The notes under the pieces: generated by a model
The model's database searches: none
Told to the model about the DNA's origin: nothing
What the model saw: only the letters and a program-made list of their open reading frames with translations
NCBI GenBank assembly: GCA_964361785.1
Contig: CAYIBX010000004.1
Location: forward strand, 1-55,712
Direction: 5' to 3'
Origin: an uncultured Gammaproteobacteria bacterium
GTDB lineage: Bacteria; Patescibacteriota; Microgenomatia; UBA10105; UBA927
DNA length: 55,712 bases
Position numbers and translations under genes: made by a program
Shown: in pieces, positions 11,399 to 55,701 of the stretch
Layout: every line of letters starts with the position of its first letter
Numbering within the stretch: position 1 is the stretch's first letter

Positions 11399-11407
11399 AT
11401 TTTTTTG

Positions 11408-12069: not shown

Positions 12070-12903
12070 GAGACGTTCTGAAGTAGTATCTTTGATTGTG
12101 AGTTCCATTGTTTCAACAATTCCATCGTTCATTACGTCTCTTAACGTATTGTCGAGGGCGATACTCGATAAATCGGCAGTATATGCATTTAAAATAATAA
12201 ACAATGGATTGTTTGATATGAGTTGTTTGCAAAGGGTAAGAAGGGATGTCAAATTATCGTCTAATTTCCATACTTCCCCTTTTGTACCTCTACCAAATCG
12301 TGGAGGATCGAGGATGATTGCGTCGTAGGTGTTACCACGTCGTATTTCTCTGTTTACAAATTTTGAAACGTCATCAAGTATCCATCGGATAGGAGATTGG
12401 GATAGGCCAGAGGCGGCGGCATTTTCTTTGGCCCAATGAATACTACTTTGGCTACTGTCTACATGCGTGACCGTGGCTTCAGCTTTGGCGCTAGCCAGTG
12501 TCGCGCCTCCAGTATAGGCAAAAAGGTTTAACACTCGTTTTTGGTTTGAGGCTTTAAGTTTATTTCCTATCCAGTCCCAATTGACTGCCTGTTCTGGAAA
12601 AACTCCCACATGTTTAAATGATGTTGGTTTTAAATTAAATTTGAGTCCGTTGTACGTTAAATGCCAGTCTATTGGCGGCTCTCTTACGATTTTCCAATCT
12701 CCTGATTCTTTGGAAGATCGTATGTATTGTGCGTCAGCATTTTGCCAGACTTCTTGTGAGGCGTGTCGTAACCAAATAGCGCGTGGATCTGGGCGACTGA
12801 TGGTGTAGTCCCCAAATCTCTCAAGCTTAGCCCCTTCTCCACTATCAATGAGTTCGTAGTCAATCCAGTCAGTCGGAAATGTGATAGGAATAGTGTTGTC
12901 CAC
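12028..12903 (-). CDS. class I SAM-dependent methyltransferase, RlmI/RlmK-like (Methyltrans_SAM type), no PUA domain
   Basis: VLNLFAYTGGATLASA…VTHVDSS…ENAAASGL…YDAIILDPPRFGRG. GTG start. Confidence 0.7.
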   Translation of the reverse strand: MDNTIPITFPTDWIDYELIDSGEGAKLERFGDYTISRPDPRAIWLRHASQEVWQNADAQYIRSSKESGDWKIVREPPIDWHLTYNGLKFNLKPTSFKHVGVFPEQAVNWDWIGNKLKASNQKRVLNLFAYTGGATLASAKAEATVTHVDSSQSSIHWAKENAAASGLSQSPIRWILDDVSKFVNREIRRGNTYDAIILDPPRFGRGTKGEVWKLDDNLTSLLTLCKQLISNNPLFIILNAYTADLSSIALDNTLRDVMNDGIVETMELTIKDTTSERLLPHGIISRWTPAP

Positions 12904-12930
12904 AAATCAAAGTATAGCACTTATTTTTTT

Positions 12931-13374
12931 TCATTTAAAAGTTTTTTTAGCATCTTCGATATTTTGTTTGTGATCGAGGGCCATTTGGTCTGGTAATTCG
13001 TTGAGAGAGAACCATTTAATATCCATTGCGTCGTCTCCTTGTTTGGCTTTGCCCTCTGCGATAGTGACTGCATAAACAAGGTTTATGACTTGTTTGGGAT
13101 GCCTAGAGGGAGAACTATAGACGCCGACTAATTTGGTGGAAATAACGTCAAGATTCGTTTCCTCTTTCACTTCTCGCTTGACGGTCTCTTGGATTGACTC
13201 GTCCCATTCTACATATCCTCCTGGTGTTCCCCAGTATCCTTTGTTTGGCTCAACACCTCTTTGGATGAGTAGTATTTGATTATCTTTGATGATAACTGCG
13301 TCAATTGATACGCCTCTGTTGGGGTATCTTTTGCAGTGTGGACATGGTTCGTTGTTTTTGAGTTGTTTTGACAT
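12931..13374 (-). CDS. NUDIX hydrolase with N-terminal zinc-ribbon-like CxxC
   Basis: Nudix box GGYVEWDESIQETVKREVKEETNL. N-terminal CPHC. Confidence 0.85.
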   Translation of the reverse strand: MSKQLKNNEPCPHCKRYPNRGVSIDAVIIKDNQILLIQRGVEPNKGYWGTPGGYVEWDESIQETVKREVKEETNLDVISTKLVGVYSSPSRHPKQVINLVYAVTIAEGKAKQGDDAMDIKWFSLNELPDQMALDHKQNIEDAKKTFK

Positions 13375-13379
13375 ACATG

Positions 13380-14042
13380 TTATTTCAATAACTGTACAAT
13401 TTTATCTAGTATTTTGTCCAACATTTTTTGTCCATATTTTGTTGAAGACTGTGTTGGATCGACGCCTTGTACAGCTCTTAACTTATCATATTTATTTTCC
13501 ATGCGCTCAAGGTCTACAAATTCAGGAGCCATGGCCATCATAAGCGACGTTTCCCATTTACCTGCATGATCTCCGATTTCCCCATCTATGAGGTCTGGCT
13601 CTTTAACAATTACAAATTGTATACCTTTCCTCAAATATTTTTCAGAAGCTACTTTCGCTATATCTGCATTGGGATAATGGCCTACCAATACAAAAATCTT
13701 TTTAAATCCTATTCGGATCATCCGATAGAAGTAGCTCTCTAATATTTTTTGGTAGAGTGTGGTATCTAGATGGTAGCAATCATATTGCTTATTGGGATAT
13801 TTTTCTAAATCTATATCCGGCCACGTATCAACGCCAAGATAGAGTGGAGGAAACACAATGCCACCAATTTTTTCTGCTGCTAGTTGACAAATTTTCCAAG
13901 CTTTCAATGAATCTAATCCTAGTACATTGTGATACCCATGGTATTCCATGCTACCGAGTGGAAGATAGGCTATGGGATTGGCAACGAATGCCGCTTTGAA
14001 CTCTTCAGGAAACATTTCCTCATATTTGGTTTTTGCATGCAT
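13380..14042 (-). CDS. creatininase-fold amidohydrolase family protein
   Basis: AYLPLGSMEYHGYHNVLGLD resembles the creatininase-family LPxGSxEQHGxHLPxxTD motif. A later GDHAGKWETS motif is also present. Confidence 0.65.
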   Translation of the reverse strand: MHAKTKYEEMFPEEFKAAFVANPIAYLPLGSMEYHGYHNVLGLDSLKAWKICQLAAEKIGGIVFPPLYLGVDTWPDIDLEKYPNKQYDCYHLDTTLYQKILESYFYRMIRIGFKKIFVLVGHYPNADIAKVASEKYLRKGIQFVIVKEPDLIDGEIGDHAGKWETSLMMAMAPEFVDLERMENKYDKLRAVQGVDPTQSSTKYGQKMLDKILDKIVQLLK

Positions 14043-14061
14043 ATAGCTTACCTAAGCGTAC

Positions 14062-14409
14062 TCAAAAAATAATTTGAAAATAAAATAATAGGAAAACAAT
14101 AATGTGTATTGGTGCAGTAACTAAACCAGATACATATTTCTTTACATTTCCAGCCCACACAATATGTTGAACTCCGTTGGCAAACATGAGAGCTAGGAAA
14201 AACGCTTGAAGGTAAGCTCTGCTCGGAAAATCTTGAAGAAGCCACACACCAATCCAGAAACTTTCAAACACTACTTCAAAAATTAAGAACGCCCAGAATG
14301 GCATTTTGAAGAGATACCATTTTTTGTGGAAGCCAGTTGAAAGTTCTTCAATAGAATGTGCGATTTGAACAAATAAGCTGATTGTAAAGTATTGTTCAAG
14401 AAGACTCAT
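14062..14409 (-). CDS. HXXEE domain-containing membrane protein
   Basis: 115 aa with 4 hydrophobic segments and the N-terminal HSIEE motif. Confidence 0.6.
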   Translation of the reverse strand: MSLLEQYFTISLFVQIAHSIEELSTGFHKKWYLFKMPFWAFLIFEVVFESFWIGVWLLQDFPSRAYLQAFFLALMFANGVQHIVWAGNVKKYVSGLVTAPIHIIVFLLFYFQIIF

Positions 14410-14488
14410 AACGTAAGTATATCAAGAAGTGATAAATGAATGTAACGAGTCTCTATTTGCAAAAATCAACGTTATGGTATTTATATTG

Positions 14489-14559
14489 AGCGGGATAGGG
14501 GAATTGAACCCCCTTCTCATCCTTGGGAAGGATGCATACTACCGGTGTACTAATCCCGC
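14489..14559 (-). tRNA. tRNA-Gly (anticodon CCC)
   Basis: Hand-folded: GCGGGAT/ATCCCGC acceptor, CATCC-TTCCCAA-GGATG anticodon arm, GGGGG-TTCAATT-CCCCT T arm, discriminator U. CCA is not encoded. The 5' 10 nt overlap the end of the GIY-YIG ORF. Confidence 0.9.
14549..14559 (-). repeat. 11-nt direct repeat copy R (GCGGGATTAGT = tRNA-Gly positions 1-11)
   Basis: Identical 11-mer to 14852-14862, read on the minus strand. Confidence 0.9.
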
Positions 14560-14813
14560 GATTTTAAACTCCACACTATTTTATCATTCAATACTTCTCG
14601 ACCGTATCCACTTTTATAAAATAATTCCTGTTTGATAGCGTCCTGTTTTGCTATAAATGCTTCATAAAATACTAAATCAAATGGAGCGTTCTTTTTTGAA
14701 AACGTTCCACCTTGTTTCGCATTATGTTCATTCACTCGCTGCTTTAAATCACTCGTAAAGCCAATATACTTTCGTTTAGTTTTCTTACTTACTAATACGT
14801 ATACATAATACAT
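14550..14813 (-). CDS. stand-alone GIY-YIG nuclease domain protein (UPF0213/COG2827-like)
   Basis: MYYVYVLVS…KYIGFTSDLKQRVNEHN carries the GIY-YIG signature (YVYVL…YIGFT…R..EHN). The TAG stop lies at positions 8-10 of tRNA-Gly. Confidence 0.85.
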   Translation of the reverse strand: MYYVYVLVSKKTKRKYIGFTSDLKQRVNEHNAKQGGTFSKKNAPFDLVFYEAFIAKQDAIKQELFYKSGYGREVLNDKIVWSLKSRD

Positions 14814-14820
14814 ACGTGTA

Positions 14821-14853
14821 CCCGCCTCATCGGCGGGTCGCCGAAGAGGCGAC
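14821..14853 (-). other. two adjacent GC-rich stem-loops in the GIY-YIG leader
   Basis: Minus strand: GTCGCC-TCTTC-GGCGAC, then CCCGCC-GATGA-GGCGGG, ending 8 nt before the ATG. GC content is far above the local background. Confidence 0.7.
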
Positions 14854-14862
14854 TAATCCCGC
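14852..14862 (-). repeat. 11-nt direct repeat copy L (orphan copy of the tRNA-Gly 5' end)
   Basis: GCGGGATTAGT on the minus strand, 303 bp upstream of the copy in tRNA-Gly. Confidence 0.9.
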
Positions 14863-14882
14863 ACGTTACACCATAAGAACAC

Positions 14883-14902
14883 ATCTCATAATACCATGAG
14901 AT
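14883..14902 (-). terminator. possible terminator hairpin downstream of the LysM gene
   Basis: ATCTCAT-N6-ATGAGAT 7-bp stem followed on the minus strand by GTGTTCTT, a weak U tract. Confidence 0.3.
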
Positions 14903-14937
14903 TGTTAGTCCGACTACACGGTCTTTTCAAAAAAAGC

Positions 14938-15486
14938 CTATGGCAATTGCAATACGTTTCCGACGTGGATGATGTTGGCATCGTTAAGTTTATTAAGACT
15001 TGCGATTTCCGTCCACCTGTATCCTGTTCCATACGTCTTTTCTGAAATGCCCCAGAGCGTGTCATCTTGTACGACAGTGTACTTGCCGCTTTCTGGTTTT
15101 TTCACTTCGACTGCAGCTGATGATACTTGGCCTACTGGTTCTCGTTTGTCTACTTTTGGAATAGTGAGCGTTTGGCCCGCCTCTATACTATCTGCGTTAG
15201 AAAGCTTGTTGGCTTCTACGATATCTACCCAGTTGTAGCCACTTTGAAAATATTTTTCTGAAATTTTCCAGAGTGATTCACCAGCTGCCACTGTATGTGT
15301 GGCAGGTAGAGCAGTTTCTATTTGCTTTGCTTCTTCTTTTGCTTTCGTGTCTGTGGTTGCTTGTTGGCCCTTATTTTTGACAAAGTTGACCACAAGCATC
15401 GTCGTTACAACGACGACGGCGATGCCTAAAAATAGGGATACAACACTGTCTGAATTTTGTAGTTGTTTTTTGATTTTATCAATCAT
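14938..15486 (-). CDS. membrane-anchored protein with two LysM domains
   Basis: N-terminal TM (VVSLFLGIAVVVVTTMLVV). Two LysM repeats: HTVAAGESLWKISEKY…IEAGQTLTIP and YTVVQDDTLWGISEKT…IHVGNVLQLP. AGGAGG Shine-Dalgarno (SD) sequence upstream. Confidence 0.9.
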   Translation of the reverse strand: MIDKIKKQLQNSDSVVSLFLGIAVVVVTTMLVVNFVKNKGQQATTDTKAKEEAKQIETALPATHTVAAGESLWKISEKYFQSGYNWVDIVEANKLSNADSIEAGQTLTIPKVDKREPVGQVSSAAVEVKKPESGKYTVVQDDTLWGISEKTYGTGYRWTEIASLNKLNDANIIHVGNVLQLP

Positions 15487-15557: not shown

Positions 15558-15591
15558 CCCGCCGTAGCTCGCTTTGGCGAGCGAAGGCGGG
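15558..15591 (-). other. nested GC-rich hairpin overlapping the 3' end of tRNA-Asp
   Basis: Minus strand: CCCGCC-TTC-GCTCGC-CAAA-GCGAGC-TAC-GGCGGG. The 5' arm contains the last acceptor nucleotides plus the discriminator. Confidence 0.7.
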
Positions 15592-15662
15592 ACCGAGCGG
15601 ACTCGAACCGCCGACCTCCTCCTTGACAGGGAGGCGCTCTAACCAGGCTGAGCTACGATCCC
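15588..15662 (-). tRNA. tRNA-Asp (anticodon GUC)
   Basis: GGGATCG/CGGTCCC acceptor, GCTC-AGCCTGGTTA-GAGC D arm, CCTCC-CTGTCAA-GGAGG anticodon arm, GGCGG-TTCGAGT-CCGCT T arm, discriminator G. Confidence 0.9.
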
Positions 15663-39933: not shown

Positions 39934-40005
39934 TGGGTCGGCTGGGGATCGAACCCAGAACCAATTGCTTAAAAGGCAATTGCTCTACCATTGAGCTACC
40001 GACCC
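39934..40005 (-). tRNA. tRNA-Lys (anticodon UUU)
   Basis: GGGTCGG/CCGACCC acceptor, GCTC-AATGGTA-GAGC D arm, ATTGC-CTTTTAA-GCAAT anticodon arm, CTGGG-TTCGATC-CCCAG T arm, discriminator A. Confidence 0.9.
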
Positions 40006-44753: not shown

Positions 44754-45098
44754 GTGTACACTGAATATATGGAAATGTGTCCAGCGTGTCATACAACGGT
44801 GAAAAATACCGATTATTTTTGCTTTAACTGCGGGAAGAATTTACATGAGAAGCCGCCGTCAATAAGCATATTCGATCAAGCGCTTCTTTATGCAAAGTGT
44901 ATATTTTTGCCCCCTATGGGTTTTATATGGGGATGTAAGTATTTAAAGCAGTCAGATCAGCGCACGCGAATCGTCGGCCTTGTCGCATACGCGATTACGG
45001 TAATCGTTTTCATATGGGCGACAGCGTATACGATGAATGTTTTCAATACAGTAAGCAAACAAGTAAACACGCAATTTGAAGGTGTTGGAGGATTTTAG
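44754..45098 (+). CDS. zinc-ribbon membrane protein
   Basis: CPACH…CFNCG ribbon followed by two hydrophobic segments. The GTG at 44754 is preceded by a GGGGGA SD. An alternative ATG lies at 44769. Confidence 0.55.
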   Translation: MYTEYMEMCPACHTTVKNTDYFCFNCGKNLHEKPPSISIFDQALLYAKCIFLPPMGFIWGCKYLKQSDQRTRIVGLVAYAITVIVFIWATAYTMNVFNTVSKQVNTQFEGVGGF

Positions 45099-45110
45099 TA
45101 TGTGAATGTC

Positions 45111-45150
45111 ACTACAACTTTTTTACGCTATAGCGTAAAAAAGTTGTAGT
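45111..45150. repeat. 40-bp perfect palindrome downstream of the zinc-ribbon gene and upstream of the aldolase operon
   Basis: ACTACAACTTTTTTACGCTA|TAGCGTAAAAAAGTTGTAGT with no mismatch. It starts 13 nt after the stop at 45098. Confidence 0.9.
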
Positions 45151-45259
45151 AAACTATATGAGTATTAATAAAAAGTATAGATAAGATTATAAGTGGCGTT
45201 GACAAATTGGGCGTAGTATACGATGATTTTAGGACGTAGATTTAGTGAAAGGAGACGTT

Positions 45260-46174
45260 ATGAATATCCCACTCTTTGTTCCCGCAGATGTTCCTGAGGC
45301 AAAACGGTTAGAGTATGAAAAGAATATAAAGCTAGCGACCCATGATACGGGTCGACTTATGCTTTTTGCAGGTGATCAGAAGGTAGAGCACATGAATGAT
45401 GATTATTACGGAGACGGAATTGCACCCGACGACGAAAATCCAGAACATATGTTTGAGATCGCAAGTCGAGCGAGTATTGGTGTATTTGCCACACAGTTAG
45501 GATTAGTAGCACGTTATGGCGTCGACTACAAAACTATACCTTATTTGGTGAAATTAAATTCCAAAACTGATTTGGTGAAAAAAGACGTGAGTGACCCAAG
45601 AAGCTTTAGCTGGTATGACGTGGATGACGTCGTCCGATTTAAAGAAACGAGTGGGTTAAATATTTTAGGAGTAGGATACACAGTATATTCTGGAAGCGAA
45701 TTTGAAGGCCAAATGCTTCACGAAGCAGCACAAGCCGTGTTTAAGGCGCATCAACATGGATTATTGAGTGTTCTTTGGATGTATCCAAGAGGAAGATCGG
45801 TCGCTGATGAGAAAGATCCGCATTTAGTCGCCGGAGCCGCAGGTGTGGCGTGTACGTTAGGATCTGACTTTGTAAAGGTAAATTATCCAAAACCTAAAGA
45901 AGGAGATAGAGCTAAAGCATTAAACGAAGCAGTTGTTGCCGCAGGACGTACGAAGCTTATTTGTGCAGGCGGCAGTAGTATGGAGGTCAAAGATTTTTTG
46001 ATAACGCTTCATGAGCAAATTCATGTGTCTGGCACCAGTGGTAATGCGACAGGTAGAAATATTCATCAAAAGCCGCTTGAAGAAGCAGTACGATTTGCCA
46101 ACGCTGTTTCAGCTCTCACATACGATGGCGCATCGGTAGACGCAGCGTATGCTATATATAAAGGAAGTAACTAA
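45260..46174 (+). CDS. class I (DhnA/archaeal-type, DeoC/LacD superfamily) fructose-bisphosphate aldolase
   Basis: …LMLFAGDQKVEH…, the Schiff-base lysine region GSDFVKVNYP, and GRNIHQ. Followed directly by fbp. The ATG at 45260 has an AAAGGAG SD. The track ORF starts at a GTG at 45245. Confidence 0.7.
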   Translation: MNIPLFVPADVPEAKRLEYEKNIKLATHDTGRLMLFAGDQKVEHMNDDYYGDGIAPDDENPEHMFEIASRASIGVFATQLGLVARYGVDYKTIPYLVKLNSKTDLVKKDVSDPRSFSWYDVDDVVRFKETSGLNILGVGYTVYSGSEFEGQMLHEAAQAVFKAHQHGLLSVLWMYPRGRSVADEKDPHLVAGAAGVACTLGSDFVKVNYPKPKEGDRAKALNEAVVAAGRTKLICAGGSSMEVKDFLITLHEQIHVSGTSGNATGRNIHQKPLEEAVRFANAVSALTYDGASVDAAYAIYKGSN

Positions 46175-46175
46175 T

Positions 46176-47108
46176 ATGGCGCGTATAACGCTTACAGAGT
46201 TTGTAGCAAAAAATAATAGCGAGTTGGGTGCACCGTTTCAAGAGCTTATGGCGGTCATTGAAACTGTAGCACAGAAAATTCATGCCAAGCTTGATCGGAA
46301 CGGCTTGATTGAAGAATCGGGAGACTCAGGAAGTACGAATGTATATGGAGAAGAAGTGCAGAAACTGGATGAATATGCCAACGCAATACTCACCGATTCG
46401 CTTCTTGTCTGTACTGCAGTGCACGCAGTGGGGTCTGAAGAACTGTCAGATCCAAAGTTTTCGACCCATGAGAAGGGATCCTATATCGTCACCCATGATC
46501 CTGTGGATGGGTCATCAAATATTGATACAAATTTACCCATTGGGACAATTTTTGGTGTATATCCTAAAAATGAAACAGTACTGCAAAAAGGCTCTACGCT
46601 TATAGTTTCTGGCTATGTATTGTATGGCCCAAGCATGATGCTTGTGTATGCCACAAAAGGACACGTAAATGGATTTACCTTTGATCCGAGTATTGGCGCA
46701 TTTGTACTAAGCTATCCTGATATAGAAATTGGGGACAAAAAGTATTATGGCATCAATGAAGGTAATTGGGAATTATTTTCTGAGGGAGACCGCGCGTATT
46801 TATCGAGTATTAAAAAGGAAGGCGGATATTCGTTGCGATACGTGGGATCAATGGTTGGAGATATTCATCGTACTTTGTTAAAGGGTGGTATATTTATCTA
46901 TCCTTCGGATTCTAAACATCCGAATGGAAAATTGCGGTTATTATATGAAGTTGCACCGTTATCATTTCTCATAATCCAAGCTGGCGGGGATGCGATAAGT
47001 GACAAGACTAACCCGCTTGATCTCTTACCAGAAAAGCACGATCAGCGCGTGGCAATTGCGTTAGGATCAAAAAGTGAGATAAAGAAATATCTTTCATTTC
47101 AAATATAA
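46176..47108 (+). CDS. fbp: class 1 fructose-1,6-bisphosphatase
   Basis: NVYGEEVQKLDEYAN, DPVDGSSNID, YGPSMMLV, LRYVGSMVGDIHRTLLKGGIFIYP, and GKLRLLYEVAPLSFLIIQAGG. Confidence 0.9.
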   Translation: MARITLTEFVAKNNSELGAPFQELMAVIETVAQKIHAKLDRNGLIEESGDSGSTNVYGEEVQKLDEYANAILTDSLLVCTAVHAVGSEELSDPKFSTHEKGSYIVTHDPVDGSSNIDTNLPIGTIFGVYPKNETVLQKGSTLIVSGYVLYGPSMMLVYATKGHVNGFTFDPSIGAFVLSYPDIEIGDKKYYGINEGNWELFSEGDRAYLSSIKKEGGYSLRYVGSMVGDIHRTLLKGGIFIYPSDSKHPNGKLRLLYEVAPLSFLIIQAGGDAISDKTNPLDLLPEKHDQRVAIALGSKSEIKKYLSFQI

Positions 47109-47136
47109 TCTTCACAATTTCTTCATCAATGTGCTG

Positions 47137-47142
47137 TATAAT
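47137..47142 (+). promoter_or_regulatory. -10 box TATAAT placed 6 nt before the response-regulator ATG
   Basis: ctgTATAATgcctgcATG. Confidence 0.35.
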
Positions 47143-47148
47143 GCCTGC

Positions 47149-47823
47149 ATGAGAGTGTTATTGGTGGAGGATGAGCTGCGTTTATCAAGAGTTATAAAAA
47201 AGGGTCTTGTAGAAGACGGGTTTGCCGTAGATACAGCGTTTGATGGAGAGGAAGGTCTTTTTTTAGCAGAGTCGGAAACCTATGATGTCATAATTTTAGA
47301 TATTATGCTTCCCAAACTTGACGGATTGCAAGTGTGTCAAAGATTGAGAGCCAAAAAAATAAAAACTCCGATACTTATCTTGACTGCAAAAACGACTCTT
47401 GAAGACAAAGTATCAGGATTTGAGAGTGGGGCGGATGACTATGTTACCAAGCCGTTTGCGTTTATAGAACTTCGATCGAGAATTCATGCACTTGTCCGAA
47501 GAAGCGTCGGAGAAGCCACATCGACACTTGCTCTCAAAGATCTCGTGGTCGATTCAATAAAGCACGCAGTGTCACGATCGGGATTACCAATTAGCCTCAC
47601 CCCCAAAGAATTTTCTATTTTAGAATTACTACTGCGGCATAAAGATGAGGTGGTGACTCGCACGATGATAACAGAGCATGTGTGGGATTATAATTTTGAA
47701 GGAATGAGCAACATTGTCGATGTGTTTGTGGCAAGCCTGAGAAGAAAGGTTGATAAAAAATCGCCGTATAAATTACTCCACACGATACACGGTGTAGGAT
47801 ATAAAATAAGTGAGACACCATGA
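47149..47823 (+). CDS. OmpR-family response regulator, heavy-metal (CusR/CopR-like) type
   Basis: MRVLLVEDE, YDVIILDIMLPKLDG (phospho-Asp), LILTAK, GADDYVTKPFAFIELRSRIHALVRR, and winged helix LTPKEFSILELL…VDVFVASLRRKVD…IHTIHGVGY. Confidence 0.9.
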   Translation: MRVLLVEDELRLSRVIKKGLVEDGFAVDTAFDGEEGLFLAESETYDVIILDIMLPKLDGLQVCQRLRAKKIKTPILILTAKTTLEDKVSGFESGADDYVTKPFAFIELRSRIHALVRRSVGEATSTLALKDLVVDSIKHAVSRSGLPISLTPKEFSILELLLRHKDEVVTRTMITEHVWDYNFEGMSNIVDVFVASLRRKVDKKSPYKLLHTIHGVGYKISETP

Positions 47824-49223
47824 ATACAAAAAGCGTCCGCTTTCGTTTAACTGCCCTCTATAGTAGTACTCTCATATTCTCATTGGTTATTTTATTTGCA
47901 AGTTTCTATTGGGTGACCAAACGGGAGCTTTATAATCACACCGACGTCGCACTTCGGTCCCACGGCAATCGGCTCATAAATATATTAACGCAGGAAAAGT
48001 TACTTATTGATACGCAAATGTCATCGCAACTATTAACAGAGGCATTTAATGAAACACCCGGGATGTTGGCATTTGTTACGGATAATCAAGGAAGCGTTCT
48101 GACTATTTCTCAACGGACAAATAATGTTGATGACGTAGCTGCAGCGCTATTTGCTAAGGCAAAGTCATTTAAGGATCCGTTATTTGTCAACCAATCTGTG
48201 GGATCTGTCGGCATGCGCTTTATACTCATTCCGATTATTGTCAATGAGTCGCTTCTTGATGTCATTATAATAGGACACCCTATCGATGTCATAGATAATT
48301 CATTGGTGTCTTTATATGGAAGTCTGATAGTAGTTTTTTTGTCGTTTGTGATTCCCACGGTATTTGGTGGATATGTATTGGCCGGGAGCGCTCTTTTACC
48401 CGTAGGGGAAATCAGTAAAGAAATGGCTGAAATTAGTTCGGAAAACTTGAAACGTCGCGTGAAAGCTCCTCACACAGAGGATGAAATAGAAGAGTTAGCT
48501 CATACATTTAATGGTTTACTGGATCGGATAGAACATGCATTTACACGAGAGAGACAGTTTATTGGCGATATTGCCCACGAGTTAAAAACGCCCCTTGCGA
48601 CATTAAAGAGCGGCATAGACGTCGCCATTTTAAAGAATCGGTCTCAATCGGAGTATAAAAAGGTGCTTGACGAACTTTTGATTGATGCAAATCGGTTATC
48701 CGCTACTCTTACGCATATATTGGATTTGGCATGGGGTAAGGTAGATACATACGAAACCATAAAAGATTCTGTGAATATATCAGAGGTAACAAGAGAGGTA
48801 GTGGAAATTGCTCAAAAGTTGTCTTACGGAAAAGATATTGTAATTGCCTCACATATCGAAGATGGGCTCATGATTCGGGGAAAGAAAGACAAAATATTTC
48901 GTGCAATCGTAAATATTGTGGATAATTCCATTAAGTTTAGTAAAGAAAAAGATACTATTACCATTTCGCTTCGTAAAAAATCTAAGCAGGTAGTATTGGG
49001 GGTTAAAGATACTGGTAGGGGAATTGCAAAAGAAGATTTTCCGCACGTATTTGATCGCTTTTATCGTGGATCTAAAACAGATAAAACCATAGGATCTGGT
49101 TTAGGATTGTCCATAGCAAAAGCGGTTATTACTTCATGTGGAGGTACGATTTATATAAAAAGTACTACCGGCAAAGGAACATTTGTGACCATTGTTTTTC
49201 CTCAGGATATCACTACTTCATAA
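47820..49223 (+). CDS. sensor histidine kinase, heavy-metal sensor (CusS/CopS-like) architecture
   Basis: Two TMs flank a loop of about 130 aa. HAMP domain, H box FIGDIAHELKTPLA, N box VDNSIKFS, G boxes DTGRGI and GSGLGLSI. ATGA overlap with the response regulator. Confidence 0.9.
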   Translation: MNTKSVRFRLTALYSSTLIFSLVILFASFYWVTKRELYNHTDVALRSHGNRLINILTQEKLLIDTQMSSQLLTEAFNETPGMLAFVTDNQGSVLTISQRTNNVDDVAAALFAKAKSFKDPLFVNQSVGSVGMRFILIPIIVNESLLDVIIIGHPIDVIDNSLVSLYGSLIVVFLSFVIPTVFGGYVLAGSALLPVGEISKEMAEISSENLKRRVKAPHTEDEIEELAHTFNGLLDRIEHAFTRERQFIGDIAHELKTPLATLKSGIDVAILKNRSQSEYKKVLDELLIDANRLSATLTHILDLAWGKVDTYETIKDSVNISEVTREVVEIAQKLSYGKDIVIASHIEDGLMIRGKKDKIFRAIVNIVDNSIKFSKEKDTITISLRKKSKQVVLGVKDTGRGIAKEDFPHVFDRFYRGSKTDKTIGSGLGLSIAKAVITSCGGTIYIKSTTGKGTFVTIVFPQDITTS

Positions 49224-49228
49224 TTGCT

Positions 49229-49245
49229 TTTCATTATTAATGAAA
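49229..49245. promoter_or_regulatory. inverted repeat TTTCATTA-T-TAATGAAA upstream of the metal operon (candidate response-regulator operator)
   Basis: 8-bp perfect arms centred about 39 nt upstream of the ATG at 49276. TTCAT(A/T)(A/T)TT also occurs three times in direct orientation (49217, 49230, 49248). Confidence 0.3.
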
Positions 49246-49263
49246 TCTTCATATTTACATTGA

Positions 49264-49269
49264 TACTAT
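49264..49269 (+). promoter_or_regulatory. -10-like TACTAT placed 6 nt before the ATG at 49276
   Basis: gaTACTATtgaatcATG. Confidence 0.3.
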
Positions 49270-49275
49270 TGAATC

Positions 49276-51069
49276 ATGAATACTTCATGGAAGAAAACAA
49301 CAATTCCTGTCAAAGGCATGCATTGTAGATCATGTGAAATCCTTATTGAAGACGAATTGTCTCACGTACTAGGTGTTTGCAAAGTAGAAGTCAGTGAGAA
49401 TAAAGGTATAGCCGAAGTATATTATGAAACGGATTTGGGGGTGGAACAAATAGAACAAGCGATACATAAAGCCGGATATGAAGTGGGTTTTAATGACAAA
49501 AAGCCCTGGCTATCGAAAAATATCGGGGATTATGCGGATGTATTTTATGCAGGAGTTGCATTGTTTTTTCTCTATGTTTTGGTTTCTATCCTTGGATTGA
49601 CGAAGCTTTTGGGTGTTGGTGGCGGCCATCCTACAAGCTTTGTCACTGTGCTTATTATCGGTTTGACCGCAGGATTTTCTACATGCATGGCGCTTATTGG
49701 CGGATTGGTTTTGGGCGCGGCTACTCGATACGCTCAAAACCACCCCAATGCGACAAACAAAGAGAGATTCACTCCGCATCTTTGGTTTACTGCAGGAAGA
49801 ATAGTATCCTACACCATTTTTGGCGGAATCATCGGCGGTATAGGATCATTTTTTCAATTCTCAGGGTTTGGTTTGGGTCTTTTAACACTGGCTGTCGCGC
49901 TGGTCATGCTCACACTTGGTACGCAGCTTACCGGTTTATTTCCGAGGCTTGAAGGGCTTAAAATGAGCTTACCCAAAGGAATTGCACGATTATTTGGTAT
50001 TAACAATCAAAAGGAGAGCGAGTATAGTCATAAAAATTCGTTTGTATTAGGAGCAAGTACATTTTTTCTTCCCTGCGGTTTTACTCAGGCCATGCAGCTT
50101 TATGCCATGAGCACCGGTAATGTATTTTCAGGTGCTATGATTATGGGGGTATTTGCAATCGGTACAGCACCGGGACTTTTAGGCATAGGCGGGCTCACCT
50201 CTGTTGTTCGCGGAGTTTTTGCCCAAAAATTCTTTAAATTTGCAGGCGTTGCGGTGATGGGGCTTTCACTTTTTAACATCAATAACGCGCTAAACCTGAT
50301 AGGGTGGAATCCTGTCAATGGATTAGGTTTGGGTAGCGCTGTTTTGGCAGCCGCTACAGAAAATATTGGCGTGCGAAAAGGAGATACGCAGATTGTACGT
50401 ATGACACAGGATGCCCGTGGATACTCACCAAATTCTTTTACGATTGAAAAAGGAGTACCGGTCAAATGGATTATCAACTCAACAGACGTGAATACGTGTG
50501 CTTCAAGTATCGTCTCGTCTCAAATTGGCGTACGGATAAATTTGCATCCTGGCGAAAACACTGTTGAGTTTACGCCAAAAACTTCAGGAACCATTAGTTT
50601 CTCCTGCATGATGGGTATGTATCGGGGCTCATTTACTGTTGTTGATAGCATAAATGCATTGGTCGCTCAACCATCCGCTGATTCTGTGGCAGATAACAAA
50701 GAAAGTGGGTCGTGTGGAGGTGGCGGATGTGGATGTGGCGGGACGAAAAAACCAGTTGTCGAACAGGTCGCCAATGATGCGCCAATCATCAAAAATGATG
50801 TGCAAATTATTAAGACAACATATACCCAAGACAAAGATATTTCACCCAATACGTTTATCGTAAACGCAGGCATACCAGTTCGGTTAGAGGTAGATGTGAA
50901 GGATTTTGGATCGGGATGTATGAGCACCATCATGGTGGCAGGTCAGACAGAATCGCAATTTTTGGAAAAAGGAAAAACGTTGCTACTCTCATTTACACCA
51001 AAATCTAAAGGCGAGTATCCGATTACTTGTGCCATGGGCGTTGCGAGAGGAAAGATTAAAGTTATTTAA
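49276..51069 (+). CDS. fusion protein: HMA metal-binding domain + DsbD_2/TauE-like polytopic permease + Cys/Gly-rich linker + two cupredoxin-like domains
   Basis: N-terminal GMHCRSCE HMA. About 6-7 TMs with intramembrane Cys (GFSTCMALIGG, FFLPCGFTQAM). Two beta-rich repeats end in FSCMMGMYRG and ITCAMGVARG, separated by SGSCGGGGCGCGG. Confidence 0.65.
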   Translation: MNTSWKKTTIPVKGMHCRSCEILIEDELSHVLGVCKVEVSENKGIAEVYYETDLGVEQIEQAIHKAGYEVGFNDKKPWLSKNIGDYADVFYAGVALFFLYVLVSILGLTKLLGVGGGHPTSFVTVLIIGLTAGFSTCMALIGGLVLGAATRYAQNHPNATNKERFTPHLWFTAGRIVSYTIFGGIIGGIGSFFQFSGFGLGLLTLAVALVMLTLGTQLTGLFPRLEGLKMSLPKGIARLFGINNQKESEYSHKNSFVLGASTFFLPCGFTQAMQLYAMSTGNVFSGAMIMGVFAIGTAPGLLGIGGLTSVVRGVFAQKFFKFAGVAVMGLSLFNINNALNLIGWNPVNGLGLGSAVLAAATENIGVRKGDTQIVRMTQDARGYSPNSFTIEKGVPVKWIINSTDVNTCASSIVSSQIGVRINLHPGENTVEFTPKTSGTISFSCMMGMYRGSFTVVDSINALVAQPSADSVADNKESGSCGGGGCGCGGTKKPVVEQVANDAPIIKNDVQIIKTTYTQDKDISPNTFIVNAGIPVRLEVDVKDFGSGCMSTIMVAGQTESQFLEKGKTLLLSFTPKSKGEYPITCAMGVARGKIKVI

Positions 51070-51080
51070 AGGAGAATTAT

Positions 51081-51293
51081 ATGAATGAACAAACAATCAT
51101 AATATCCGGTATGACCTGTGGAGCGTGCATCAATCTCGTTACAAAAATACTTTCTCGGATGAAGGGTATACGTAGTGTTCTTTCCGTTGAAAAAGGTTTA
51201 GCCAAAGTTTCAGTCGATACTCACTATTCAAAAGAGGCGTTTGCTCACGTGTTTACAGGGACGCCATATACGGTAGAAAGTATTACTTTATGA
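51081..51293 (+). CDS. copZ: copper chaperone CopZ (single HMA domain)
   Basis: 70 aa with [15 protein letters not shown]. Confidence 0.85.
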
Positions 51294-54040
51294 ATAATAA
51301 TTTAGTATTAGACGTGAGCGGGATGCATTGTCAATCGTGCGAAATGCTTATAACGGAAGAACTTAAAGGTTTGCAAGGAGTGAGTGATATCTTAGTGAGT
51401 CAAAAAGATGGCTCCGCCCTGATGCGCATGGATCCGAAATTAGTCACCGTTTCGGAGATTGTGGACGCCGTTAAACGCGCAGGATATGAGGGAAAAGTGA
51501 AATCAAATGGTGAATCATTGCCCTCCCATGGAAAGCCAATTAAAATTACTATCGAAACAACCACAGATGCCTTTCCTACTTCGGATTTATTATCATTATT
51601 GACGATAAAAAATAATTCTCAAATACCTGTTGCTACCTATACAGCTCATGCGACGCGTATGACTAAATCTTCTCAGCTACAATCATCGACGAAACGAATG
51701 AAACTGGATATTTCCGGTATGCACTGTTCTTCATGTGCCGGGCTCATTGAAAGGTCTTTAAAAAAAGTACAGGGTGTTTCTGCAGCAAATGTTAATTTCG
51801 CAGCAGAAAAAGCGAGCGTCATTTTCGATGAAAATACTGCCTCATCCTCGGATTTAGTGGCAGCAGTTCAAAAAGCAGGATATAAAGCCACGATTATAAA
51901 AGAAGGTTCGTCAGTAGATGATACAGCCAAACGGACCGCCGAAATCAGTCATCTGTTTCATTTGTTTATCCGTAGTTTTATTCTTAGCGTGCCGATGCTG
52001 TACTTTATGCTTTTTGATTTTTTCCCACGTATTGCCGGTAAGGCTTTTCTATTCCCGTATATTGGTGTTATTTCACTCGTTCTTTCCACTCCCGTGCAGG
52101 TTTTTATGGGAGCGGGATTTTATAAGGGCATGTGGTCTGCGCTTCGGATGAAAACGTTTAATATGGATAGCTTGATAGCAATTGGAACATCGACTGCGTA
52201 TTTTTATAGTGTTATTAACTTCATTACCTATTATGCACAAAATAGGTCATATATTGGACTTTTTGGTCAAAAAATTCCGGAGTTATATTTTGAAACTGCT
52301 GCGTTTCTTATCACATTCGTGCTCCTTGGCAAATGGCTTGAAAAGCGAGCCAAAGGACAGACTTCTGATGCAATTTTAAAACTCATGGGACTGCAGGCCA
52401 AAACTGCGCGTGTCATCCGAAATGGAGACACAAGCGACATTCCTATTGATCAAGTTGTCGCAGGGGACATTATTCTCATTCGACCTGGTGAGAAAGTTGC
52501 TGTTGACGGAAAAATTATAAAAGGATCATCGTCAGTAGATGAATCCATGATAACCGGTGAAAGTTTACCGGTAGAAAAAAACGTAGGTGATACGGTTGTG
52601 GGTGCGACAATGAATAAAACAGGCAGTTTTGAATTCATCGCTACGAGAGTTGGGAACGAAACAACATTAGCACAAATCATACGATTAATTGAGGAAGCCC
52701 AAGGATCCAAAGCACCGATACAGGCGTTTGCAGATAAAATTTCTGCGTATTTTGTTCCAATAGTTATTGGAATCGCCATACTTACATTCGTCATTTGGTA
52801 TTTCTTTTTAGGTGCGTCACTGGCGTTTGCGCTTATGGCGTTTACCGCGGTCATTGTCATTGCCTGTCCGTGTGCATTGGGTCTGGCAACTCCGACAGCG
52901 CTTATGGTGGGCACTGGTAAAGGCGCACAACACGGGATACTTATAAAAGGCGGCGAGCCACTTGAGGCAGCATGTAAAGTGGGGGCCGTTGTGTTTGACA
53001 AAACAGGGACTCTCACTAAAGGCAAGCCTGAAGTGACAGATACAGTATCGTTTGGACAACTGGACGAGGATGATGTGTTGACTCTATCTGCCAGTTTGGA
53101 AAAATCATCGGAACATCCGCTTGCTGAGGCTATTTACGAATATGCCAAAGAAGAACAAATCCCTTTTAAGGATGTTACTGATTTCAAAGCTATTCCGGGA
53201 AAGGGCGTCACGGGGGTGATTGATGATACGACATATTACTTCGGTAACCGAAAGCTTATCGATGATGTGTCGGGCCTTACTATTTCTTCGTATGAACGAA
53301 AATTAGTGCGTCTAGAAGAACAAGGTAAAACTGCTATGATATTGGCCCAATCAGATAAAATTTTGGGCATTGTGGCTGTCGCTGACACAGTAAAAGAAAC
53401 ATCGAAAGAAGCGGTGGCGTCGCTTATCAAACGTGGTATTGCAGTTTACATGATAACCGGTGATAACCAGAGGACAGCAAATGCAATTGCCGCACAGGTT
53501 GGTATAACAAACGTACTAGCAGAAGTGTTGCCGCAGGATAAAGCAAATGAAGTGAAAAAGATTCAACAAACGGGCGTGAAGGTTGCTATGGTAGGCGATG
53601 GCATAAACGACGCACCTGCTTTGGCTCAGGCAGACGTAGGGATTTCGATGGGCAATGGTACTGACGTTGCTATGGAAGCCGGAGGCATTGTCATTATCAA
53701 AAATGATCTTGCCGATGTCGTAACCGCGTTTGATTTATCCCGTGAAACGATGACAAAGATTAAGCAAAATATGTTTTTTGCACTTTTTTATAATGTTATC
53801 GGAATTCCTATCGCGGCCCGTGTGTTTATGGGTATAGGTTTAGTGCTTCGACCTGAGCTTGCAGGACTTGCGATGGCTCTGTCTTCTGTATCTGTCGTGT
53901 CCAATTCATTGCTGTTGCGGTATTTTAACCCAGGGAAGCGTAATTGGCTCTCTCAAGCTGCTCCGGTTGTCATGACCCTGGTATTTTTCTTTGTCTTTGT
54001 ACAATTTGGTCGGTTAAGTTCTGCCATGGCTACGAAGTGA
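51290..54040 (+). CDS. copA: copper-translocating P1B-type ATPase with two N-terminal HMA domains
   Basis: GMHCQSCE and [15 protein letters not shown] ([12 protein letters not shown]), DKTGTLT, ITGDN and [20 protein letters not shown]. Confidence 0.95.
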
Positions 54041-54051
54041 AAGGAAGGTTT

Positions 54052-54582
54052 ATGAAACACAAACAGACAGAAGGTACTGATAAAACGATACTTTGGCATA
54101 TCGTCGGATTAACCGTGTTTATTTTAGTGCTTATTGGATTTGTGGCCATTGGGGAAAAGAAAGAAGCCAAAAAGGTTGGTCAGGTTGTATCGTATCAAAT
54201 AAAAGATTCACAAAAGCCTGTAGCCTCATTTGAAACTGAAACCAAGGATTTGGGAAAAATGAAAGTCAATGATGAAAAGTCAGAAGACTTTGTTGTGCGA
54301 AATACCGGTACAAAGCCGTTGTCTCTTTACAATATCAACTCATCCTGTGGCTGTACCGTAGGCGTAGTTACGATTAACGGGCAAAAAAGTCCGGAAGGCG
54401 CCATGCATTTGAAAAATTCATGGATAGGAACAGTAAATCCCGAAGAATCAGCGATAGTTACGGTAATTTATCGGCCAAGCGTTATGCCTGTAAAGGGTGA
54501 TGTATCACGCTCCGTGTACGTAGATACGAATGATCCGGCAAATACAACCCTGACATTCAACGTTTCTGCATTTGTGAAATAA
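54052..54582 (+). CDS. membrane-anchored DUF1573-like (ASPM/SPD-2/Hydin-type Ig fold) protein with CGC motif
   Basis: One TM (ILWHIVGLTVFILVLIGFVAI), then FETETKDLGKMKVNDEKSEDFVVRNTGTKPLSLYNINSSCGCTVG. The ATG at 54052 has an AAGGAAGG SD. The track ORF extends upstream into copA. Confidence 0.65.
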   Translation: MKHKQTEGTDKTILWHIVGLTVFILVLIGFVAIGEKKEAKKVGQVVSYQIKDSQKPVASFETETKDLGKMKVNDEKSEDFVVRNTGTKPLSLYNINSSCGCTVGVVTINGQKSPEGAMHLKNSWIGTVNPEESAIVTVIYRPSVMPVKGDVSRSVYVDTNDPANTTLTFNVSAFVK

Positions 54583-54587
54583 TTTGT

Positions 54588-55403
54588 ATGAATAATCTTT
54601 TTTTTGGAGTTTCCTTAACGGCTGCATTTATCGGTGGCATGCTGGCACTGTTTGCTCCCTGTTGTATCACATTTCTTTTCCCGTCATATTTAGGAACGAT
54701 TTTTAAAGAAAAAAAACGAGTCGTGTTTCTGACCCTGATATTTGCCTTAGGATTAGGAACTATTCTTATACCGGTTGCCGTAGGATTTAGATTTATTGTG
54801 TCATTTTTTAATGATTTCCATACCTCGATATATCTTTTAGGAGCGTTGGTTATGTTTCTTATCGGGCTTATGACACTACTGGATATTAAAATTATGTTGC
54901 CGGTGCCACATCGTATTATGCCAAAAGCGGAAGATACAAATGTCGTCTCTACCTATATTCTCGGGGTATTCTCGGGGATTACGTCATCGTGCTGTGCTCC
55001 TGTACTTTTTGCAGCCATAACACTTTCAACTCTTTCTCTATCGCTGGCTGGTTCGCTTTTAGTTTCCATCGTCTATGTCATGGGTATCGTGTTTCCATTA
55101 TTTTTTCTTTCATTGTTTTATGAAAAAATGACAAATACATATTTGTATACGCTTAAAAAACGGGTAGAAAAACCTTTGAAATTTATTGCGTCAGGTATTT
55201 TTATACTTTCTGCCATCGTGATTTCGTTTATGGCTTTGACAAATCGTATTCAAATGGATTCCAGTATGGAATACGGAAAAGCGCTTCGAACGATCATCTA
55301 CGAGATCTCCTCCAATTTGCAATACCCGATAGTTGATGTAGTATTCGTCGCGGGAATTATAGTATTTATTGCTATCGCTATTAAACAAGCAAAGAAAAAG
55401 TAG
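54588..55403 (+). CDS. CcdA/DsbD-like polytopic membrane protein with two vicinal cysteine pairs
   Basis: About 6 TMs. LFAPCCITFLFPSYLG in TM1 and GITSSCCAPVLFAA in a later TM. Confidence 0.6.
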   Translation: MNNLFFGVSLTAAFIGGMLALFAPCCITFLFPSYLGTIFKEKKRVVFLTLIFALGLGTILIPVAVGFRFIVSFFNDFHTSIYLLGALVMFLIGLMTLLDIKIMLPVPHRIMPKAEDTNVVSTYILGVFSGITSSCCAPVLFAAITLSTLSLSLAGSLLVSIVYVMGIVFPLFFLSLFYEKMTNTYLYTLKKRVEKPLKFIASGIFILSAIVISFMALTNRIQMDSSMEYGKALRTIIYEISSNLQYPIVDVVFVAGIIVFIAIAIKQAKKK

Positions 55404-55434
55404 TATGCTCTCTATGAGAGGAGGTGAATAGAGT

Positions 55435-55701
55435 ATGAAACATAACCGTATGGCTACTGCAAATGCTGCAGGTGCGACCACTGGCGTAGTATTTATTGCC
55501 TGTCGATTGCTCGTCGGACTATTTCCTGATTTCATGTTTACTGCCGCTCAGTCATGGTTTCATGGCGTAGAATTGACGAGGCTCACAGCGTTCAATCTCA
55601 CGCCCGCGTCTTTTGTGTGGGGTTTGATTTCGTCGTCAGTATTCGCATGGATTGTAGGATATCTCTTTGCGTATTTTTATAACATGTTTGTGAAGAAATA
55701 A
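55435..55701 (+). CDS. small two-TM membrane protein (DUF5676-like, tentative)
   Basis: 88 aa with two hydrophobic helices. GGAGGTG SD. Last gene of the metal operon before the window ends. Confidence 0.5.
   Translation: MKHNRMATANAAGATTGVVFIACRLLVGLFPDFMFTAAQSWFHGVELTRLTAFNLTPASFVWGLISSSVFAWIVGYLFAYFYNMFVKK

Follow-up and report, generated by a model that had tools for sequence, protein, structure and literature searches.

The DNA analysed here is a stretch of 55,712 nt (contig CAYIBX010000004.1; GTDB lineage Patescibacteriota, Microgenomatia), in the following called the window, which holds close to its right-hand end an island of eight genes for copper defence. A preliminary description had reported these genes, their overlaps and a series of cysteine motifs; all of them were found again, in position as well as in translation. 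The genes are:

47149–47823, + strand: response regulator of the OmpR family, CopR/CusR-like (Pfam Response_reg and Trans_reg_C)
47820–49223, + strand: histidine kinase, CopS/CusS-like (Pfam HAMP, HisKA and HATPase_c)
49276–51069, + strand: g3, a fusion protein (Pfam HMA, DsbD_2 with 106 bits, and two Cupredoxin_1 stretches)
51081–51293, + strand: CopZ-like HMA metallochaperone with the loop MTCGAC (Pfam HMA)
51290–54040, + strand: CopA, P1B-1 Cu(I)/Ag(I) ATPase (Pfam two HMA, E1-E2_ATPase and Hydrolase)
54052–54582, + strand: DUF1573 protein (Pfam, 48.9 bits with a cut-off of 26.1)
54588–55403, + strand: g7, a CC-CcdA protein (by family profile, fold and relatives)
55435–55701, + strand: DUF5676 protein, small, with two transmembrane (TM) segments (Pfam PF18926, 69.1 bits with a cut-off of 27.6)

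The regulator and kinase genes are joined by an ATGA overlap. A gap of 52 nt leads from the kinase gene to g3, and the six co-directional genes from there to DUF5676 are spaced by -4, 11, 11, 5 and 31 nt, the junction of copZ and copA being again an ATGA overlap. This layout of a two-component system and an operon is confirmed by the positions of the open reading frames (ORFs) and by Pfam. The translations contain four HMA-type CxxC sites, one CPC and the motifs SCGGGGCGCGG, SSCGCT, APCC and SSCCAP. Each of the island proteins has many homologues and conserved synteny, which rules out a chance feature. Their nearest homologues all belong to Microgenomates (Gottesman-, Roizman-, Woese- and Collierbacteria), and since GC content and base composition remain flat over the island there is no sign of a recent acquisition.

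The DUF1573 gene and the CcdA homologue with doubled cysteines

Used as a single sequence, g7 has no match in Pfam or NCBIfam, even at E ≤ 10, and does not reach the gathering threshold of PF02683. Its relatives at about 40% identity do reach this model (29–50 bits, cut-off 27.1). A family profile built from 30 diverse homologues matches the CcdA of Thermus thermophilus (5VKV) from TM1 to TM6 with E = 2.5e-18, and 5VKV is also the top and sole confident Foldseek match of the AlphaFold model of g7 (pLDDT 82; probability 1.0, TM-score 0.53/0.62). On these three grounds g7 belongs to the CcdA family. The earlier domain calls are supported by Pfam for all proteins except g7, for which the label CcdA-like fails with the single-sequence profile model and stands with family profile and structure.

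What sets g7 apart are two vicinal cysteine pairs, C25-C26 in TM1 and C135-C136 in TM4. The first cysteine of each pair, C25 and C135, aligns with one of the two catalytic cysteines of 5VKV, and the model shows helix breaks at residues 22–23 and 134–136, next to or at the pairs. The extra cysteines C26 and C136 are invariant or nearly so in the family: of 96 full-length cluster representatives at least 71 keep both pairs, as do the five homologues inspected from cultured hosts, and the motifs FAPCC[IV][ST] and [ST][SA]CCAPV persist in sequences with as little as about 30% identity. When clustered at 50% identity this family, here called CC-CcdA, gives at least 817 clusters, and species-representative genomes contain at least 585 matches; databases name the homologues of g7 'cytochrome c biogenesis protein CcdA'. 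Some members end in an HMBD or YHS tail, in two proteins the CC-CcdA domain forms the N-terminal part of a fusion with a P1B ATPase, and one relative carries a redoxin domain behind an extra TM segment. According to the positive-inside rule g7 should have seven TM segments with the N-terminus outside and the C-terminus inside, a topology that fits the HMBD and YHS tails and the ATPase fusions.

The protein encoded directly upstream passes the DUF1573 family model (PF07610) and has the Cys-x-Cys motif. Its AlphaFold model (pLDDT 88) consists of an N-terminal membrane helix and a sandwich of the immunoglobulin (Ig)/PapD-like type. Within the subfamily that partners CC-CcdA, S-C99-x-C101-T, M118-H119, M145-P146 and TNDP are invariant or nearly so. 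The middle residue of the CxC motif is G, N, D, M or H, and a Met-His or Met-Ser follows downstream in 74 of 76 sequences. A sequence search of the PDB found no match, and Foldseek returned generic Ig/PapD-like matches only, without a functional lead. In the searched literature DUF1573 is mentioned, never with a function. Since selenoprotein forms with UGC have been listed (PMC9312934, PMC13188914), the CxC motif appears to be chemically active. Judged by its conserved residues, the protein probably also binds Cu(I), via Cys2-Met-His.

For the conservation of the gene neighbourhood, the best 80 genome loci, all from Microgenomates, were taken and their six-frame ORFs searched with the island proteins; neighbours were counted within 10 kb in the 49 loci having at least 5 kb on each side. 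The result is strongly positive. In 78 of 79 loci the gene immediately before the g7 homologue, in the same orientation, encodes a DUF1573 protein. A P1B ATPase is present in 43 of the 49 loci and any copper gene in 46; g3-type genes were seen in 31, response regulators in 28, histidine kinases in 30 and DUF5676, at variable positions, in 23. With the exception of the DUF1573-g7 pair, gene order varies widely, and the accessory genes are therefore separate units. The idea that the four of them form one module, or that all six genes of the operon do, has to be given up: at least three units, namely g3, the DUF1573-CcdA pair and DUF5676, are shuffled independently and recombine freely among related loci.

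In DUF5676 itself, Cys23 in TM1 and W41/H43 in the external loop are conserved among 30 homologues; a literature search for this family found nothing relevant. A further component, absent from the window, usually follows the g7 homologue elsewhere: a Cys-rich family of about 315 amino acids (aa), here called P315. The 80 genome loci contain it in at least 56 cases, all loci searched in at least 59. Its members have a membrane anchor or a Tat signal (Tat in Burkholderia), carry YRPCC.N.T.FPDCNHG as a motif, have Gly-Cys-Gly at the C-terminus and match no Pfam family. Copper islands of a DPANN archaeon and of Burkholderia contain P315 too. Examples in our numbered loci are:

L043, 10794–11741: P315
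L088, 6174–7061: P315
L090, 5183–6286: P315
L095, 13195–14145: P315

CC-CcdA is not limited to Patescibacteria and Firmicutes, the two groups in which the preliminary description had proposed to look for the system. Cultured Proteobacteria and Actinobacteria as well as DPANN archaea have it in their copper islands, where a redoxin partner takes the place of DUF1573. A tblastn search against plasmids gave 60 records with matches. Five cultured hosts were inspected (Burkholderia contaminans, Streptomyces mirabilis, Rubrobacter tropicus, Rhodococcus pseudokoreensis and Microvirga), and all five retain both Cys-Cys pairs. In each of them CC-CcdA heads a fixed triad, with a membrane-anchored redoxin (C[QP]PCW[DE]Q) second and a small glutaredoxin-like protein, carrying C[AG]FC, third. 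Among the genes nearby, taken over the five loci, are cueR, copY or a two-component system, DUF2933, ICMT, P1B ATPases, CopC/D, DUF305 and HMA genes. The DPANN locus reads P315, a membrane-anchored redoxin with CQAC, CC-CcdA-YHS, a small thioredoxin-like protein with CSRC, a 58-aa gene, a YHS protein and a YHS-P1B ATPase. In a distant metagenomic locus (L088) the order is ArsR-YHS regulator, DUF1573, P315, rhodanese-DUF1573 fusion, a small gene, g7-HMBD-P1B ATPase fusion and multicopper oxidase. The rhodanese-DUF1573 fusion (7058–7786), which thus adjoins a CC-CcdA-HMBD-P1B ATPase fusion and a multicopper oxidase, joins a rhodanese domain with the active-site loop CRSGSMS to a DUF1573 domain with SCSCT. 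In some versions, persulfide or sulfur chemistry may thus be involved.

Three loci of Patescibacteria have both the DUF1573-type pair and the redoxin-type version, side by side. Because they share one island, the two versions should act in parallel and not as replacements of each other. The second copies are:

L028, 13879–15428: second CC-CcdA paralogue and CxxC redoxin
L047, 5091–6973, - strand: second CC-CcdA paralogue and CxxC redoxin, also mini-glutaredoxin
L076, 12437–14263: second CC-CcdA paralogue and CxxC redoxin, also mini-glutaredoxin

A CcdA relative with single cysteines adjoins a DsbA-like gene and has no copper genes nearby. On an Arthrobacter plasmid, a cluster of a CopY/BlaI-family regulator, CcdA genes and thiol oxidoreductases was read as a cytochrome-biogenesis or sulfur module (PMC6305408). 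This reading may need revision, because like clusters adjoin CopC/D and copper ATPases in Streptomyces and Rhodococcus (L096, L098).

The g3 fusion, copper efflux and regulation

The g3 protein consists of an HMA domain (GMHCRSCE), predicted to be cytosolic, a DsbD_2 part of 1+6 TM segments with the cysteine motifs STCMAL and FFLPCGFTQ, and two cupredoxin domains joined by the linker SCGGGGCGCGG. By the positive-inside rule and the charge distribution the HMA domain would lie inside and the cupredoxin domains outside. Among 23 orthologues GMHCRSCE, STCMAL, FFLPCGFTQAMQL, the cupredoxin Cys pairs and the linker (sCg.GGCGCG) are conserved in at least 90%, with the exception of the first cysteine of cupredoxin domain 1 (at least 60%). 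This domain is a clear relative of CupA (2MRY/4F2E, E = 2.8e-11), the Cu(I) ligands Cys...Cys-x-Met-x-Met being aligned, and of the metal-binding domain of pneumococcal CopA (4F2F, E = 4.8e-9). Domain 2 keeps Cys...Cys-x-Met and has Val in place of the last Met. The four accessory proteins had been introduced as lacking any demonstrated function; for g3 this needs qualification, as its cupredoxin domains are homologues of the characterised Cu(I) chaperone CupA. Databases hold at least 3833 homologues of g3, labelled only 'sulfite exporter TauE/SafE'. Split forms, in which a DsbD_2-cupredoxin gene adjoins an HMA-only gene, exist in Microgenomates and on a Streptomyces plasmid. A literature search for PF13386/DsbD_2 together with copper led to just one paper, in which HMA-DsbD_2 proteins (COG2836) are assigned in silico to CsoR regulons of gut Firmicutes (PMC4938975).

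CopZ passes the Pfam HMA model (34.7 bits, cut-off 24.8) and has the MTCGAC loop; the CopZ-specific NCBIfam models give 28–30 bits, with cut-offs of 91–95. For CopA the scores are far above the cut-offs (TIGR01511 630 bits against 397, TIGR01525 670 against 346), and its translation has the transmembrane signatures CPC, YN and MALSS, DKTGT and two N-terminal HMA domains. By these signatures it is assigned to the P1B-1 ATPases exporting Cu(I)/Ag(I). Related islands also carry genes for a multicopper oxidase, YtkA and a CopB-like ATPase. The copper specificity that had been suggested for the island is upheld, because P1B-1 signatures in CopA, CupA-type ligands in g3, CopR-like operators and copper genes of the neighbours in related islands all point to the same metal. 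An ORF of 85 aa lies between copA and DUF1573 in L005 (9119–9376), and also in L009, L010, L039 and L064; by eye its Cys/His spacing is CsoR-like, and as it has no Pfam match we rejected it as a CsoR.

The response regulator scores best with the heavy-metal regulator model TIGR01387 (251.8 bits, below the cut-off of 279.2) and the histidine kinase with TIGR01386 (228 bits, below 292.55). In the kinase, two TM segments enclose an external domain of about 130 aa and are followed by HAMP-HisKA-HATPase; H40/D42/H48, P80-G81-M82 and H153-P154 of the external domain are conserved among 28 homologues. Operator-like and promoter elements were found ahead of the regulator gene and of g3:

47106–47125, + strand: CopR-box-like direct repeat TAATCTTCAcaATTTCTTCA, with at most three mismatches to the reverse complement of the Corynebacterium glutamicum CopR site
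47137–47142, + strand: -10 box TATAAT, read from the sequence, 6 nt ahead of the start codon of the response regulator
49235–49251, + strand: second CopR-box-like repeat TATTAATGAAATCTTCA, with two mismatches to TCTTCA-N5-TCTTCA, preceding g3

The experimentally defined CopR site of C. glutamicum is TGAAGATTTnnTGAAGATTT (PMC3140484), and the first repeat shares 15 of 18 positions with it. No other place in the window comes within three mismatches of the reverse-complemented site. Shuffled windows contain at least one match of this quality in about 21% of cases, and the telling point is its placement at the promoter of the regulator gene: a perfect TCTTCA-N5-TCTTCA spans 47109–47125, and TATAAT follows 11 nt further downstream. 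The second repeat is followed after 12 nt by the -10-like GATACTAT. A core AAATCTTCAT together with the -10 element is conserved ahead of g3 orthologues (L005, L008, L010, L013, L062), and the CopR-box-like repeat occurs at 11 of 36 starts of regulator genes in related loci, where 1.7 would be expected. From resemblance and enrichment we predict that these operator-like repeats belong to the characterised CopR type. The -10 boxes lie only 6–10 nt before the start codons of the regulator gene and g3 (47137–47151 and 49262–49278), and likewise in related loci. So short a distance to the ATG suggests that transcripts from the copper-regulated promoters are leaderless or nearly so. The CopRS regulon of C. 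glutamicum combines a Cu ATPase, a multicopper oxidase, an HMA protein and one unknown protein with a TlpA-like thioredoxin, which copper induces 236-fold; by analogy this is an experimental precedent for the mixture of genes in the island.

A proposed thiol relay and its alternatives

We lean slightly towards the reading that the island is copper-induced and combines export by CopZ and CopA with external CupA-type sites of g3 and with a pair, DUF1573 and CC-CcdA, that reduces external copper-binding thiols and whose two members probably bind Cu(I) as well. The CopS-like kinase would detect external Cu(I), and the CopR-like regulator would bind the TCTTCA repeats, which have an 11-bp spacing and stand in the place of a -35 element, and would activate its own promoter and that of g3. 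CopZ would pass cytosolic Cu(I) to CopA for export, a handover well established for these families. At the outer face the CupA-type Cys/Met domains and the Cys-Gly linker of g3 would capture Cu(I), tied to the cytosol by the HMA domain and two membrane cysteines. DUF1573 and CC-CcdA, finally, would form a split, copper-dedicated relay of the DsbD/ScsB kind, CC-CcdA moving reducing equivalents from cytosolic thiols across the membrane to the CxC of the anchored DUF1573. The latter would keep external copper-binding cysteines reduced under copper-catalysed oxidation, that is its own, those of g3 and elsewhere those of P315, which may be the end substrate of the relay. The analysis itself establishes the gene content, homology, fold and synteny, the conserved residues and the presence of operator-like motifs; the direction of electron flow, the substrates, the topologies and the induction by copper are what we infer here.

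A relay role is assigned to g7 because it is a CcdA homologue by profile and by fold, with the catalytic cysteines conserved at the helix breaks. The layout of a reducing relay comes from the copper islands of other phyla, in which a cytosolic thioredoxin-fold protein, the CcdA conduit and an external thioredoxin-fold protein are found together; by analogy, g7 may carry electrons from cytosolic thioredoxin to an external partner. In the window the acceptor position is occupied by the Ig-fold DUF1573, so that DUF1573 and CC-CcdA can be read as a split analogue of DsbD/ScsB. Titles in the reference list of a review on Scs proteins describe DsbD-alpha and the N-terminal domain of ScsB as immunoglobulin-fold thiol oxidoreductase domains (PMC10907172). 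The earlier idea of an envelope-facing module for metal capture or thiol redox fits this evidence.

Several points weigh against such a relay. A plain electron conduit needs one cysteine per half, which leaves the invariant second one unexplained. HMBD and YHS tails and the fusions of CC-CcdA to P1B ATPases suit metal handling equally or better, and the invariant Met-His and Met of DUF1573 resemble metal ligands and not redox residues. No gene for a cytosolic thioredoxin or glutaredoxin adjoins the DUF1573-type pair. The topologies are those predicted from the charge distribution, and no experimental study of the CC-CcdA, DUF1573-partner, DUF5676 or g3 families was found in the literature searched.

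A possible but rather doubtful alternative is that the membrane cysteines carry Cu(I) itself. CC-CcdA with its four membrane cysteines and, separately, the DsbD_2 part of g3 would then have turned from electron carriers into thiolate-lined Cu(I) conduits, working as ATP-independent elevators between cytosolic donors (CopZ, HMA, HMBD, YHS) and external acceptors, functionally similar to MerP-MerT. The acceptor would be DUF1573 with its CxC, Met and His for CC-CcdA, and the CupA-like domains for g3. Speaking for such conduits are the conservation of the vicinal pairs, the HMBD/YHS tails and N-terminal ATPase fusions in the CC-CcdA family, and the invariant Met-His and Met beside the CxC of its partner. 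In g3 the membrane domain, which has two invariant cysteines, is flanked on either side by a Cu(I) chaperone domain, and the split forms retain the HMA gene next door. However, cultured bacteria and the DPANN archaeon have CxxC thioredoxin-fold neighbours on both sides of the membrane, which is the signature of an electron relay, and the first cysteine of each pair aligns with a catalytic cysteine of a proven electron transporter. Export of Cu(I) independent of ATP would be redundant beside an ATP-driven pump and import counterproductive in a resistance island; moreover, Pfam and NCBIfam searches of g7 revealed no homology to MerT. Should Cu(I) nevertheless be what is moved, this would be a new class of copper transporters, with a range that takes in Patescibacteria, DPANN archaea, Burkholderia and Streptomyces.

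We consider it unlikely that another thiophilic metal (Hg, Ag, Cd or Au) is the primary target. HMA, CxC and vicinal Cys-Cys motifs bind Hg(II), Ag(I) and Au(I) too, P1B-1 pumps export Ag(I) as well, and the HMA domains weakly match MerP and MerTP models. Lists of selenoproteins also group DUF1573 with families related to Hg and Cu (PMC9312934, PMC13188914). On the other hand, merA, merR and merT are absent, CopA has the P1B-1 signature and passes the cut-off of the Cu-ATPase model, the ligands in g3 are of the CupA Cu(I) type, multicopper oxidases, CopC/D and cueR/copY occur in related islands, and the operator resembles the copper-specific CopR site. A mercury island in particular was rejected: the locus gene tables and annotations examined contain no mer genes, the ATPase is of the Cu type and g7 has no match to MerT.

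Least probable, and in our view very unlikely, is that housekeeping genes for thiol-disulfide exchange or cytochrome c maturation merely happen to lie beside copper genes, as the database name of the g7 homologues, the published interpretation of the Arthrobacter cluster (PMC6305408) and the six of 49 loci without a P1B ATPase within 10 kb could suggest. Against this, P1B ATPases and copper genes are, by estimate, far more frequent near the pair than one would expect within any 20 kb of a genome of about 1 Mb. DUF1573 and g7 lie inside the operon with gaps of 5–31 nt from copA to DUF5676, and cultured Proteobacteria and Actinomycetota, a DPANN archaeon and a metagenomic contig show the same association. 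CC-CcdA is found directly fused to copper ATPases, and the loci examined revealed neither cytochrome c nor heme-lyase genes.

Surroundings of the island and comparison with known systems

On the left the island is bounded by genes of housekeeping type (44754–47108): a 114-aa protein (44754–45098) with an N-terminal zinc-ribbon-like CxxC...CxxC motif and membrane segments, followed by a DeoC-family aldolase and a fructose-1,6-bisphosphatase (ORFs 45245–46174 and 46149–47108). The right boundary of the region first described is set by the end of the window and not by that of the island. Groundwater metagenome contigs are identical to the window, and the longest one, of 93 kb, extends past the window end and shows that the island runs on. 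There the following genes were seen (positions in locus L001):

11128–11919, - strand: membrane-anchored DsbA-like oxidoreductase (CPFC), convergent, just past the window end
12019–12180: DUF2933-like protein of 53 aa, just past the window end
12223–12882: ICMT-family methyltransferase, just past the window end
12904–15012: second P-type ATPase, without HMA domain, 7.2–9.3 kb beyond the window end

This second ATPase has a Met/His-rich N-terminus and the CopB-like motifs YN and MSISS; its transmembrane metal site is CPD, in place of CPC or CPH, a signature that is not known to us from the described P1B subgroups. The cluster of DUF2933, ICMT and P1B ATPase is found again in the copper island of a Burkholderia plasmid (L095), with CC-CcdA and redoxin genes interspersed. 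Elsewhere in the window, the sole Rfam matches at gathering level are four tRNA genes, all on the - strand:

11408–11478, - strand: tRNA gene
14489–14559, - strand: tRNA gene
15588–15662, - strand: tRNA gene
39934–40005, - strand: tRNA gene

A generic scan for promoters and terminators performed no better than on shuffled sequence.

Copper kills largely through attack on thiols of the cell envelope, and to our knowledge a protection of these thiols against copper is established in a few proteobacteria only, by the Scs proteins. The island points to a far more widespread solution, built on a CcdA subfamily with doubled cysteines that sits almost always in copper islands. The partners differ by group: DUF1573 in Microgenomates, redoxin and mini-glutaredoxin in Proteobacteria and Actinobacteria, redoxin and a thioredoxin-like protein in the DPANN archaeon. 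The link to copper has been hidden, as databases label the genes 'cytochrome c biogenesis' or 'sulfite exporter'. In the literature searched we found no description of the CC-CcdA subfamily, of its pairing with DUF1573 or with redoxin and mini-glutaredoxin, of its embedding in copper islands, of the P315 family, or of DUF5676 as a component of such islands; searches combining DUF1573 with CcdA, and CcdA with copper and DUF2933, returned nothing relevant. The analysis supplies a first functional context for DUF1573, DUF5676 and P315. The proposed relay is open to genetics and biochemistry, because members of the CC-CcdA family are encoded on plasmids of Burkholderia, Rhodococcus and Streptomyces that can be grown in culture.

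CopRS, CopZ, CopA and the CupA-type domains are of known kinds, and Scs is a precedent for a copper-linked reduction by the DsbD family. The two-component system resembles CopRS of C. glutamicum and CusRS of Escherichia coli in pairing an OmpR-type regulator with a two-TM sensor kinase, and CopRS also in its operator-like direct repeat and in the make-up of the regulon, with an HMA protein, a Cu ATPase and something thioredoxin-like in each. Among the differences, regulator and kinase stay below the cut-offs of the NCBIfam heavy-metal subfamilies, the repeat overlaps the -35 position and transcripts appear leaderless, binding and copper response being predictions here. As with CupA and CopA of Streptococcus pneumoniae (4F2E, 2MRY, 4F2F), homologous cupredoxin domains are encoded near a Cu(I) ATPase. 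In g3, however, these domains occur twice and follow an HMA-DsbD_2 membrane module in the same chain, and they would face outward, whereas pneumococcal CupA acts on the cytoplasmic face.

With MerP-MerT the pair shares the combination of an external protein with a Cys motif and a membrane protein with vicinal Cys-Cys in its first TM helix; a relation in sequence or fold is lacking, there is no mercuric reductase and the context is copper. The CcdA-ResA/TlpA/StoA pathways (5VKV) have a homologous core of six TM segments with the catalytic cysteines in a broken TM1 and TM4, and CC-CcdA also shares with them the adjoining gene for an external partner. In contrast to these, CC-CcdA has Cys-Cys instead of a single cysteine in both halves and an extra C-terminal TM segment. 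Its partner is the Ig-fold DUF1573 or, in other phyla, a C[QP]PCW redoxin plus mini-glutaredoxin, and its context is copper instead of cytochrome c maturation or sporulation.

Finally, the Scs proteins (ScsB with ScsC/ScsD, together with CueP, in Salmonella, Proteus and Caulobacter) are induced by copper, aid copper tolerance, and bind and transfer Cu(I) (PMC10907172, PMC8900818, PMC5524982). Like them, the island pairs a membrane protein of the DsbD superfamily with external thiol-active proteins, and the electron-accepting domain of ScsB/DsbD has an Ig fold, as DUF1573 has. The membrane part, however, is a minimal CcdA of seven TM segments with doubled cysteines, where the ScsB/DsbD type has a TM domain of at least eight helices. 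DUF1573 is a separate gene with CxC and not a fused alpha domain, and ScsA, ScsC and ScsD are absent. The genes share the copA operon, and the host is a cell of Patescibacteria type without a classical periplasm. Thus, DUF1573 and CC-CcdA together are an analogue of ScsB/DsbD and not a member of that group.

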